Below, piece after piece: positions 59,919 through 62,591 of a DNA stretch of 64,000 bases; position 1 is the first letter of the stretch; each line of letters begins with the position of its first letter. The stretch lies in assembly GCF_003334385.1 (NCBI RefSeq), contig NZ_QOWN01000002.1, one strand, 5' to 3'. The translations under genes were made by a program, and so were the position numbers. Below the pieces are notes generated by a model. That model saw nothing but the letters and a program-made list of their open reading frames with translations, made no database searches and was not told where the DNA came from. Source of the DNA: Escherichia coli (GTDB lineage: Bacteria; Pseudomonadota; Gammaproteobacteria; Enterobacterales; Enterobacteriaceae).

Positions 59919-62591
59919 TTAAGCAATGGTACGTTGGATCTCGATGATTTCGAATACTTCGATCACATCGCCAGTGCGGACGTCGTTGTAGTTCTTAACG
60001 CCGATACCACATTCCATACCGTTACGGACTTCGTTAACGTCATCTTTGAAGCGGCGCAGGGACTCCAGCTCGCCTTCGTAGATAACCACGTTGTCACGCA
60101 GAACGCGGATCGGGTTGTGACGTTTAACCACACCTTCGGTAACCATACAGCCTGCGATGGCACCAAATTTCGGCGATTTGAACACGTCACGAACTTCCGC
60201 CAGACCGATAATCTGCTGTTTCAGTTCCGGAGACAGCATACCGCTCATCGCCGCTTTCACTTCGTCAATCAGGTTATAGATGACGGAGTAGTAACGCAGA
60301 TCCAGGCTTTCCGCTTCAATCACTTTACGTGCAGAGGCATCAGCACGTACGTTAAAGCCAACCAGGATGGCGTTGGACGCCGCAGCCAGGGTGGCGTCGG
60401 TTTCGGTGATACCACCTACGCCAGAACCGATGATCTTCACTTTAACTTCGTCAGTAGACAGTTTCAGCAAGGAGTCGGAGATCGCTTCGACAGAACCCTG
60501 TACGTCTGCCTTCAGGACGATATTCACTTCGTGAACTTCGCCTTCGGTCATGTTGGCGAACATGTTCTCGAGTTTAGATTTCTGCTGACGCGCCAGTTTA
60601 ACTTCGCGGAATTTACCCTGACGATAGAGTGCAACTTCACGCGCTTTCTTCTCGTCACGTACAACGGTAACTTCATCACCCGCAGCCGGTACGCCGGACA
60701 GGCCGAGGATTTCCACCGGAATGGACGGACCCGCTTCCAGCACTTCCTGACCCAGTTCGTTACGCATCGCACGAACACGACCGTATTCGAAGCCACACAG
60801 AACGATATCGCCCTTGTGCAGAGTACCTTCACGTACCAGAACGGTAGCAACCGGACCACGACCTTTATCGAGGAAGGATTCGATAACCGCACCGCTCGCC
60901 ATACCTTTACGTACCGCTTTCAGCTCCAGAACTTCCGCCTGCAGCAGGATAGCGTCCAGCAGTTCATCGATACCGGTACCCGCTTTCGCAGATACGTGTA
61001 CGAACTGGCTTTCACCGCCCCACTCTTCCGGCAGGATGCCGTACTGGGAGAGTTCGTTCTTAACGCGATCCGGATCAGCTTCTGGTTTATCGATCTTGTT
61101 CACTGCAACCACCACCGGTACCTGCGCCGCTTTCGCGTGCTGGATTGCTTCGATGGTCTGCGGCATCACACCGTCGTCGGCAGCAACAACCAGGACTACG
61201 ATGTCCGTTGCCTGCGCACCACGAGCACGCATTGAAGTAAACGCGGCGTGCCCCGGGGTGTCCAGGAAGGTGATCATGCCGTTTTCAGTTTCAACGTGGT
61301 ATGCACCAATGTGCTGGGTAATGCCGCCCGCTTCGCCAGAGGCCACTTTCGTTGAACGAATGTAGTCCAGCAGAGAGGTTTTACCGTGGTCAACGTGACC
61401 CATGATGGTCACAACCGGCGCGCGCGGTTCAGCCGCAGCACCCGTGTCACGGTCGCTCATTACCGCCTCTTCCAGCTCGTTTTCACGACGCAGGATAACT
61501 TTATGGCCCATCTCTTCAGCAACCAGCTGTGCGGTTTCCTGATCGATAACCTGGTTGATGGTTGCCATTGCGCCCAGTTTCATCATCGCTTTGATGACCT
61601 GAGAGCCTTTAACCGCCATCTTGTTCGCCAGTTCGCCAACGGTGATAGTTTCGCCGATCACAACGTCACGGTTAACGGCCTGAGCAGGCTTCTGGAAGCC
61701 TTGCTGCAGCGAAGAACCTTTACGTTTTCCGCCTTTACCGCCACGTACTGCTGCGCGTGCTTCTTCACGATCAGCTTTTGATTCAGCGTGTTTGTTGCCT
61801 TTCTTCGGACGCGCTGCTTTCGCGTTACGACCACGGCCACGGCCGCCTTCGACTTCACGATCGCTTTCGTCTTCTGCCTGGCGAGCATGTTGAGAAGTAG
61901 TGACGTGATAATCGCTGGAATCTTCAGTCGGTTCCGCGTTATCAGTCCATTTGTTTTCTTCCGCCATACGACGTGCTTCTTCAGCAACGCGACGTGCTTC
62001 TTCTTCGAGTTTACGACGCGCTTCTTCTTCAGCTTTACGCTTGAGCTCTGCAGCTTCCTGCTCACGGCGGGCTTTTTCAGCCTGGGCGTTTTTAGTCATA
62101 TCGTCTTGTTGATTGCTCACTTTGTCTTTTTCCGCAGCTTCACGTTTCGCTTGTTCAGCAGCTTCACGCTTAGCTTGTTCTGCGGCCTCACGTTCAGCTT
62201 TTTGTTGCGCCTCGCGTTTAGCCGATTCTTCTGCCTCACGACGGGCTTGCTCTTCCGCTTCACGCTGCGCTTGCTCTTCCGCTGCAAGGCGTTCAGCCTC
62301 TTGCGGATCGCGTTTCACAAAGGTGCGTTTCTTGCGGACTTCGATTTGTACCGATTTGCTTTTTCCACCGGTACCAGGAATGTTAAGGGTGCTGCGTGTT
62401 TTACGTTGCAGCGTCAATTTGTCCGGGCCTGAATTTTTCTGATTCAGGTGGTCAATCAAAGTCTGTTTCTCTTGTGCAGACACAGAGTCGTCAGCAGACT
62501 TCCGGATACCTGCATCAGCAAATTGCTGTACCAGGCGTTCCACGGAGGTCTGTCGCTCTGCGGCCAGCGTTTTAATCGTTACATCTGTCAT
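59919..62591 (-). CDS. infB: Translation initiation factor IF-2, 890 aa
   Basis: Track ORF; G-domain motifs [17 protein letters not shown]. In-frame internal starts at codon 158 (GTG, ~62120) and codon 165 (ATG, ~62099). Confidence 0.95.

Follow-up and report, generated by a model that had tools for sequence, protein, structure and literature searches.

The window, a 64,000-nucleotide stretch of Escherichia coli DNA, carries the complete infB gene on its minus strand, with the nusA and rbfA open reading frames on either side; in E. coli genomes the neighbourhood of infB is rimP-nusA-infB-rbfA-truB-rpsO-pnp. The gene was 100% identical at the DNA level over 2673 nt to the annotated infB of many complete RefSeq E. 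coli genomes. A match was present in 5426 of 5426 complete E. coli genomes, and all of the matches listed were annotated as infB. It is the same gene as infB of E. coli K-12 (b3168, P0A705; products IF2-1/alpha, IF2-2/beta and IF2-3/gamma, the last equivalent to beta'): the codon numbers 1, 158 and 165, the operon, the domains and the start-site contexts are shared, and nothing substantive differs.

The IF2 architecture was complete by Pfam, with IF-2 (E = 1e-42), GTP_EFTU (2e-37), EF-G_D2 (3e-28), IF2_assoc (7e-17), two IF2_N domains (6.5e-16 and 2.3e-09) and GTP_EFTU_D2 (1e-9). AF2 predicted a beta-hairpin at residues 58-92, in the IF2_assoc region, and the N1 subdomain has been reported to bind NusA (PMC12297416). 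Rfam detected no RNA families inside infB. The coding sequence and its domains are located as follows:

59919..62591, minus strand: infB coding sequence of full-length IF2-1 (IF2-alpha), 890 codons plus stop (open reading frame list, translation)
62442..62591, minus strand: N1 subdomain, residues 1-50, Pfam IF2_N (AF2 pLDDT 84-93), in IF2-1 only
62310..62426, minus strand: IF2_assoc region, residues 56-94 (Pfam PF08364, E = 7e-17)
61500..61652, minus strand: N2 subdomain, residues 314-364, second Pfam IF2_N (E = 6.5e-16)
60945..61415, minus strand: GTPase domain, residues 393-549 (Pfam GTP_EFTU, E = 2e-37)

Three start codons in one reading frame

The initial annotation had proposed GTG codon 158 and ATG codon 165 as in-frame starts of IF2-beta and IF2-gamma. 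Translation confirmed that both (62120..62118 and 62099..62097) are in frame, and the assignment agrees with TRAINSPOTTER (PMC13245402), which names AUG1, GUG158 and AUG165 as infB starts, and with the g474c and t494c mutations of PMC3334882. The gene of the window is almost certainly E. coli infB with one mRNA giving three nested proteins by internal initiation at GUG158 and AUG165. According to the literature, 30S initiation at AUG1 gives IF2-1 (alpha, 890 residues), an independent start at GUG158 gives IF2-2 (beta, 733 residues), whose first residue is fMet despite the GTG, and a start at AUG165 gives IF2-3 (gamma or beta', 726 residues). The names alpha, beta and gamma are still used, and short and long forms have been reported at similar levels (PMC12297416). 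Internal initiation in infB is a classic bacterial case, traced by 10.1101/520783 to work of 1973-1992.

62589..62591, minus strand: primary ATG start, codon 1, of IF2-1 (open reading frame translation; two N-terminal peptides in TRAINSPOTTER Table S1)
62118..62120, minus strand: GTG codon 158, internal start of IF2-2/IF2-beta (in frame; Met-initiated peptide; Ribo-RET flag)
62097..62099, minus strand: ATG codon 165, internal start of IF2-3/IF2-gamma, or beta' (in frame; two peptides in TRAINSPOTTER)

The three nested products, also claimed at the outset, are borne out by the TRAINSPOTTER tables (PMC13245402), which contain Met-initiated infB peptides at codons 1, 158 and 165 (in Table S2, residues 158-175, with Met at the GTG codon, and 165-175) and a Ribo-RET flag at codon 158. 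The 60-nt start contexts of Table S1 are identical to the window sequence in every letter (K-12 data, identical local sequence). Retapamulin profiling (Ribo-RET, 10.1101/520783) gave specific peaks at the infB internal site that earlier work had verified. Initiation profiling, suggested earlier as a check, has been done in these published data; it supports codon 158 (peak and flag), but the Ribo-RET field is blank in the ATG165 rows of Table S1 (PMC13245402), where peptides are present. Three infB sites in total are given in Table S2, with no start at the in-frame NTG codons 17, 37, 45, 59, 92 and 209.

The short forms could instead be proteolytic fragments of full-length IF2, with GTG and ATG being ordinary Val and Met codons, an explanation to which we give next to no probability. 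The N-terminal region of IF2 is protease-sensitive, the name gamma was at one time given to a cleavage product too, and AF2 gave low-confidence, presumably exposed segments at residues 160-164 and 217-229. However, the N-terminal peptide has Met where the gene encodes Val, which only initiation at GTG allows, and start-codon point mutations serve to prevent the short forms (PMC3334882), so proteolysis is already refuted. In that study (Madison et al. 2012) g474c and t494c alter the start codons, and the earlier work cited there found the short forms abolished; in the window infB these positions belong to codons 158 and 165. The same paper, again citing earlier work, describes an infB deletion that stops 32 nt before GUG158 and still permits the short forms. 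The Ribo-RET peak at the internal site (10.1101/520783) also argues against proteolysis.

Conservation and ribosome-binding context of the internal starts

Enterobacterales conserve the internal start together with its ribosome-binding context. The codon-158 column of 41 Enterobacterales loci contained GTG in 35 and TTG in two (37/41 with a start codon), in a cross-species comparison that is phylogenetically non-independent and slightly biased toward loci retaining the site, since loci were fetched with six peptide patterns, NQQDDMTK among them. All of the Val codons in this column were GTG (35/35); proteolysis would not select such codons, nor the TTG (Leu, still a start codon) of two species. 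ATG165 was kept in 27 of the 41 loci. The third product (ATG165) stands on less firm ground than the second (GTG158), its Ribo-RET field being blank, and is also less conserved, the codon being absent from 14 of the 41 loci. Outside the Enterobacterales, the GTG158/ATG165 pair and the open mRNA stretch described below were not conserved, with one GTG (Gilliamella) among 38 other loci. Within E. coli, 5295 of 5426 genomes matched the 81 nt around the starts at 99% identity or more.

When 38 sequences were aligned with the GTG/TTG as anchor, the synonymous codons preceding GTG158 proved frozen: GCG153 in 35/36, GAA154 in 38/38, AAA155 in 26/26 and AAA157 in 36/37. Ala148 and Ala152 use all four codons, and the Ala and Lys codons near the frozen GCG-GAA-AAA-nnn-AAA block vary freely. 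The elements that make up the context of the starts are:

62597..62604, minus strand: Shine-Dalgarno-like AGGAAGGA, 6-13 nt upstream of ATG1 (sequence; anti-SD duplex -6.5 kcal/mol)
62121..62135, minus strand: GCGGAAAAAGACAAA, a weak SD-like GGA(A) with an A-rich spacer, abutting GTG158 on its upstream side (alignment of 38 sequences; frozen synonymous sites)
62075..62155, minus strand: least structured stretch of the infB mRNA, 45-52% A, covering both internal starts (folding)

Nine in-frame candidate starts between codons 1 and 209 were compared for anti-SD energy, and ATG1 had the strongest (-6.5 kcal/mol). Upstream of GTG158 the energy was -3.5 kcal/mol, where the median within the gene was -2.5 kcal/mol, and 19% of in-frame infB positions reached -4 or better; ATG165 had practically no SD upstream (-1.9 kcal/mol). 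A strong Shine-Dalgarno sequence at the internal starts is ruled out, both energies being unremarkable against the gene-wide background. Since these energies are weak, the SD part of the proposed mechanism rests on conservation and not on strength: a weak but strictly conserved GGA(A) element, lying just upstream of the internal starts within the last 24-nt repeat unit, would contribute to ribosome binding.

Folding of the infB mRNA placed the nine least stable of 892 60-nt windows all at codons 156-164 (centres), with MFE values of -2.5 to -4.5 vs. a median of -14.2 kcal/mol. The 81-nt segment around the internal starts had z = +1.48, and 191 of 200 shuffles folded at least as well. The probability of being unpaired over -20..+4 placed codon 158 at the 92nd percentile and codon 165 at the 98.6th. 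Among the other in-frame NTG codons, codon 45 was more open than GTG158 (95th percentile), codons 59 and 92 reached the 86th-87th percentile, and codons 17, 37 and 209 were in structured mRNA; the anti-SD energies of these six codons were all weak (-0.7 to -3.5 kcal/mol). All 36 relatives having the start had the site at the 95th percentile of openness or higher; for 14 gammaproteobacteria from other orders, the median was at the 85th percentile, with none at the 99th. Judging from sequence, folding and conservation, what would make internal initiation possible is the position of both start codons in the most open part of the whole infB mRNA, a stretch rich in A.

As an alternative to internal starts on the full-length mRNA, synthesis of the short forms from a separate, shorter transcript, with a promoter inside infB, is very improbable. 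Internal promoters do exist in the operon, and a cold-responsive one for infB alone has been looked for close to the nusA-infB junction (PMC6511841); nothing points, however, to a promoter in the coding region upstream of codon 158. A consensus scan of 59700-62800 on both strands found no sigma-70-like sites (1.7 expected by chance), which is weak negative evidence. What is conserved is typical of a ribosome-binding site (the start codon, GGA(A) and the open A-rich stretch). A separate transcript would concern the source of the mRNA only, since initiation would occur at identical codons anyway.

The octad repeat array and the predicted hinge

GTG158 is the final codon of the final unit of a tandem array, and a second block of charged repeats follows the two internal starts:

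62118..62285, minus strand: tandem array of seven 24-nt/8-residue units, codons 103-158, of the EAAEQAKR type (Tandem Repeats Finder, register and shuffle tests), in IF2-1 only
61944..62096, minus strand: second charged repeat block and predicted helix, residues 166-216 (Tandem Repeats Finder, AF2), in all three isoforms

Tandem Repeats Finder detected a 24-nt period at 62126-62200 (3.1 copies, 82% matches) and at 62227-62283 (2.4 copies, 84% matches). In the array, identity at lag 8 in the protein was 33/47 vs. 9.9 ± 2.6 in shuffled sequences, and at lag 24 in the DNA it was 102/141 vs. 55 ± 5.9 in codon-shuffled sequences; none of 5000 shuffles reached the observed value in either case (33 and 102). 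The reiterated units of the initial annotation are consequently real by both approaches, but the unit has eight residues, and the nine-letter motif given there overran the next unit by one. The array spans 62285..62118, not ~62290..62125, and includes GTG158. The second, looser block, with periods of 21 and 24 at 61956-62039, had gone unmentioned (codons 166-216).

AF2 predicted a helix at residues 96-157 (62 residues, pLDDT 82-87), a low-confidence break at 158-165 and a further helix at 166-216 (pLDDT 76-83). Only the local secondary structure of the model is trustworthy, because the mean pLDDT was 72 and the pTM 0.26. Residues 96-157 were 53% charged and 2% hydrophobic, with 17 i/i+4 pairs of opposite charge and no heptad seam (1 of 17 heptad a/d positions hydrophobic); residues 166-216 were 57% charged. 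Both internal starts bracket the predicted hinge, and divide IF2 between the two long charged helices of the prediction, so that the short forms lack Domain I (N1, IF2_assoc and the octad-repeat helix) and retain all that initiation requires. Functions specific to the isoform carrying Domain I have been reported (PMC12297416, NusA binding; PMC3334882; 10.1101/2025.02.02.631968).

Charge density, i to i+4 pairs and scarcity of hydrophobic residues are shared by 96-157 and 166-216 with charged single alpha-helices (ER/K, SAH; for example in myosins), a resemblance drawn from sequence and AF2 prediction. Nothing relevant was found in the literature tying bacterial IF2 to single alpha-helix domains.

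All 38 Enterobacterales loci that were compared retain the array. Measured from residue 94, the start lies at the same distance in 17 of them and eight codons further on in five. Alanines A108, A112, A116, A120, A124, A128 and A132 were conserved at 90% or more, and the alanine/charge pattern was almost invariant. The window infB has the standard seven units; rare E. coli strains have eight or nine, and with these one or two extra units the internal starts become codons 166/173 or 174/181. Of 5426 E. coli genomes, one had the nine-unit allele of OkiPb01695, and the eight-unit allele of BS74R-D occurred in 4 of the 12 best-ranked genomes; both frequencies are bounds from BLAST summaries. In the five E. 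coli alleles read, gains of one or two whole units were independent, with at least four different duplication points, and the last unit was intact in all.

Variation of this kind, between species (+8 codons in 5/38) and within E. coli (the eight- and nine-unit alleles), would suit an array that is neutral low-complexity filler generated by slippage, with no specific structural role and only coincidentally near the internal start. So would the published descriptions of the connection between N1 and the body of IF2 as a flexible linker (PMC12297416) and of a large N-terminal intrinsically disordered region (10.1101/2025.02.02.631968). We consider neutral filler somewhat unlikely, though a serious possibility. 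Against it stand the retention of the array in all 38 loci, with equal length in 17, the seven alanines and the charge pattern, the rarity of expansion alleles in E. coli, the prediction of a single 62-residue helix without heptad seam, and the reduced phase separation reported for IF2 without its first 158 residues (10.1101/2025.02.02.631968).

A more speculative proposal, which we regard as rather improbable, is that the array (103-158) might be a length-variable single alpha-helix acting as a ruler of about 12 Å per unit, setting the reach of the NusA-binding N1 from the ribosome-bound body. The inferred ribosome-binding site of IF2-beta sits in the last unit, and gains of units would alter alpha only, leaving beta and gamma synthesis unaffected. 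A limited literature search found no description of repeat copy-number variation or of a ruler role for the IF2 array.

Comparison with other nested genes

The internal starts of infB, its isoforms and their proof by profiling and N-terminomics are already known, and nothing is new here as a finding. The locus is a positive control, in which a reading of the raw sequence recovered real, experimentally verified nested products. The frozen synonymous block, the least structured point of the mRNA across an order, the predicted hinge and the rare repeat alleles are additions consistent with the known biology; they offer handles on why E. coli keeps its IF2 isoforms, which is described as poorly understood (10.1101/520783, PMC12297416).

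The initial view that three nested products are unusual for bacteria was overstated: TRAINSPOTTER (PMC13245402) reports two or three in-frame starts for 68 E. coli genes, and its start triplets also include glmU, glpK, rimM, rpsE and rplB. In the iTIS catalogues (Ribo-RET and TRAINSPOTTER), clpB, mrcB, cheA and speA resemble infB in that one open reading frame gives a full-length and an N-terminally truncated product, whereas infB has two internal starts, 7 codons apart, and gives three products. Two IF2 isoforms made from in-frame starts have also been reported in Bacillus subtilis and other genera (PMC12297416), but the tandem starts of B. subtilis and other non-enteric IF2 genes and the enterobacterial GTG/ATG pair appear to be independent sites.

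infB and its internal starts

The infB DNA of the window was 100% identical to annotated infB in many complete E. coli genomes, and an infB match was found in all genomes of the E. coli collection searched (5426/5426). The same ORFs flank the gene in the window as in the representative record (rimP, nusA, infB, rbfA, truB, rpsO, pnp). Pfam revealed a complete IF2 architecture (IF2_N, IF2_assoc, GTPase domain, EF-G_D2, IF-2 domain and GTP_EFTU_D2).

Features of infB
59919..62591, minus strand: infB ORF, 890 codons plus stop (ORF list, translation)
62120..62118, minus strand: in-frame GTG, codon 158 (sequence)
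62099..62097, minus strand: in-frame ATG, codon 165 (sequence)
Residues 1-50 and 314-364: IF2_N, two copies (Pfam)
62310-62426, minus strand, residues 56-94: IF2_assoc (Pfam)
Residues 393-549: GTPase domain (Pfam)

The initial annotation took GTG158 and ATG165 as the starts of IF2-beta and IF2-gamma (alpha/beta/gamma naming as in PMC12297416). Both codons were read in the window, and this interpretation is supported because the literature names the same codons, with N-terminal peptides, start-codon mutants and peaks in retapamulin initiation profiling (Ribo-RET). The N-terminomics study TRAINSPOTTER (PMC13245402) gives AUG1, GUG158 and AUG165 as infB start codons and lists the N-terminal peptides MTDVTIK... 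(from residue 1), an 18-residue peptide (158-175) and an 11-residue peptide (165-175); the 60-nt start contexts given in its tables match the window sequence exactly. Peptide 158-175 carries Met where the infB codon is GTG (PMC13245402), and only initiation can place Met at such a codon. Madison et al. altered both start codons (g474c and t494c, changes cited as earlier shown to abolish the short forms), and noted that the short forms are still permitted by a deletion that stops 32 nt short of the IF2-2 start (PMC3334882). Proteolysis cannot be the source of the short forms, given the Met-for-Val peptide and the start-codon mutants (PMC13245402, PMC3334882). A transcript from a promoter inside infB has no support: a consensus scan of 59700-62800 showed no sigma-70-like site, and such a promoter would leave the translation start positions unchanged.

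The initiation profiling proposed as a check is already published. Ribo-RET showed specific peaks at the previously verified infB internal site (10.1101/520783), and the Ribo-seq support field of TRAINSPOTTER Table S1 reads "Ribo-RET" in the GTG158 rows and is blank in the ATG165 rows, with N-terminal peptides for both (PMC13245402). Homologous proteoforms have been reported in Salmonella. The nested infB products are thus already known and experimentally verified, and their description as unusual for bacteria must be tempered, as 68 E. coli genes are listed with two or three in-frame starts (PMC13245402). What is mildly new here is descriptive only: a frozen synonymous block, an mRNA-structure minimum at the site, starts bracketing a predicted hinge, and repeat-number alleles.

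Domain I, found in alpha only, binds NusA (PMC12297416), and phase separation of the beta form is far below that of alpha according to a preprint (10.1101/2025.02.02.631968). The Pasteurellaceae IF2 genes retrieved (L057, L059-L063, L065, L066, L076, L080) encode 824-854 residues; most start at about E. coli residue 41-54 and therefore lack N1 (the first IF2_N subdomain, residues 1-50), the NusA-binding subdomain in E. coli.

Several other features were observed around the gene. The mechanical rbfA ORF (59354-59773, minus strand) has a TTG start, with the annotated ATG following six codons downstream; a published N-terminal peptide (TRAINSPOTTER Table S1, PMC13245402) agrees with the start as annotated (MAKEFGR...). 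Directly past the infB stop codon, in the infB-rbfA intergenic region, lies an Rfam match to naRNA4 (RF02564, 68 bits, 59832-59902, minus strand), which is described there as a nucleoid-associated noncoding RNA. Gathering-level Rfam matches were also obtained for SraG sRNA (57804-57975, plus strand, just below the rpsO ORF and on the opposite strand), the ribosomal S15 leader (58205-58319, minus strand, upstream of rpsO) and RNase P RNA (rnpB, 14488-14864, minus strand). Long stop-free ORFs run antisense to infB (59520-61235, 571 aa; 61788-62432, 214 aa; 62113-62442, 109 aa; all plus strand); they are probably a by-product of codon and repeat composition, not genes.

Conservation and mRNA openness at the internal starts

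Eighty infB loci were fetched from species-representative genomes, one of the retrieval patterns (NQQDDMTK) overlapping the internal-start site. The window sequence was aligned with 78 of them (79 sequences in all), two truncated loci being left out.

Codons at the internal starts (the species are kin, and conservation and openness counts are not independent)
Column 158, 41 Enterobacterales: GTG in 35, TTG in 2
Column 158, 38 other gammaproteobacteria: GTG in 1 (Gilliamella)
Column 165, 41 Enterobacterales: ATG in 27, GTG in 2
Column 165, 38 other gammaproteobacteria: no conservation

At column 158, neither GTG nor TTG was present in the remaining four of the 41 Enterobacterales, namely Budvicia, a MAG and two Arsenophonus symbionts. 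ATG165 was less conserved than the codon-158 start (27/41 vs. 37/41 Enterobacterales). Every Val codon at column 158 was GTG (35/35), and synonymous sites were frozen immediately upstream (GCG153 35/36, GAA154 38/38, AAA155 26/26, AAA157 36/37); by contrast, all four codons were used at Ala148 and Ala152, and Lys149 was split 20 to 18. A weak Shine-Dalgarno match (-3.5 kcal/mol) lies within the conserved GCGGAAAAAGACAAA block upstream of GTG158.

The internal-start region is 45-52% A. Among the 60-nt windows along the infB mRNA (n = 892), the nine least stable were all centred on codons 156-164, and an 81-nt segment at the starts was less stable when folded than most shuffled versions of itself (z = +1.48). 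Ranked for openness within its own mRNA, the site reached the 95th percentile or higher in 36/36 Enterobacterales with the start codon, and the 99th or higher in 24; among other orders, 14 full-length loci gave a median at the 85th percentile, with none as high as the 99th. De novo 30S binding at an open, A-rich internal site fits these data. Judging by its title, a 2002 paper by Laursen et al. (in the references of PMC1780047) had already addressed the mRNA requirements for internal infB initiation.

The octad repeats and their length variants

The repeats noted ahead of codon 158 are real, with 24-nt periods (Tandem Repeats Finder, TRF), but the unit is an octad and the array includes GTG158.

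Repeat blocks of infB
62118-62285, minus strand: octad array, seven 8-residue units of EAAEQAKR type, codons 103-158 (TRF, register)
61944-62096, minus strand: second, looser charged repeat block, codons 166-216 (TRF periods 21 and 24)

Identity at lag 8 (protein) and lag 24 (DNA) was above all 5000 shuffles, including codon-preserving ones. The seventh unit is degenerate (EAAEKDKV) and has GTG158 as its final codon; in the other units the last residue is Arg. The second charged block (residues 166-216) is downstream of both internal starts and common to all three isoforms.

Species also differed in the spacing between residue 94 and the internal start (64 codons in 17/38 sequences; 72, one unit more, in 5/38). 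Within E. coli, genome assemblies (loci L082, L083, L084, L085, L086) carried in-frame expansions to 8 or 9 octads vs. the standard 7.

E. coli expansion alleles
BS74R-D: 8 units, duplication of unit 1/2; same segment in at least three more genomes
O157 Al Ain: 8 units, duplication giving a unit 5/6 hybrid
NR301: 8 units, duplication of unit 4
M15: 9 units, two separate one-unit gains
OkiPb01695: 9 units, 48-nt duplication of two units

The duplications affected different units, and the last octad and both internal starts were intact in all E. coli expansion alleles found. As the expansions are in frame and keep the last unit, the internal starts become codons 166/173 or 174/181. The octads may be functionless filler, but their conservation across Enterobacterales and the rarity of length variants speak against this, the OkiPb01695 allele being present in only 1/5426 E. 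coli genomes.

Predicted anatomy of the N-terminal region

AlphaFold2, given 32 aligned N-terminal regions as input, predicted a compact N1, a hairpin (58-92), a helix (96-157; 62 residues, pLDDT 82-87), a low-confidence break (158-165) and a further helix (166-216). Both starts would thus bracket a predicted hinge, given the break between the two helices. The IF2_assoc region (residues 58-92; 62310-62426, minus strand) was modelled as a long beta-hairpin of two strands; averaged in blocks of 10 residues, pLDDT was 73-88 across residues 51-90. Published accounts call the N1-to-body connection a flexible linker (PMC12297416) and the N-terminal region disordered (10.1101/2025.02.02.631968). The helices 96-157 and 166-216 are 53-57% charged, nearly without hydrophobic residues and without a heptad seam; as predicted, both resemble charged single alpha-helices, a likeness of the models only.
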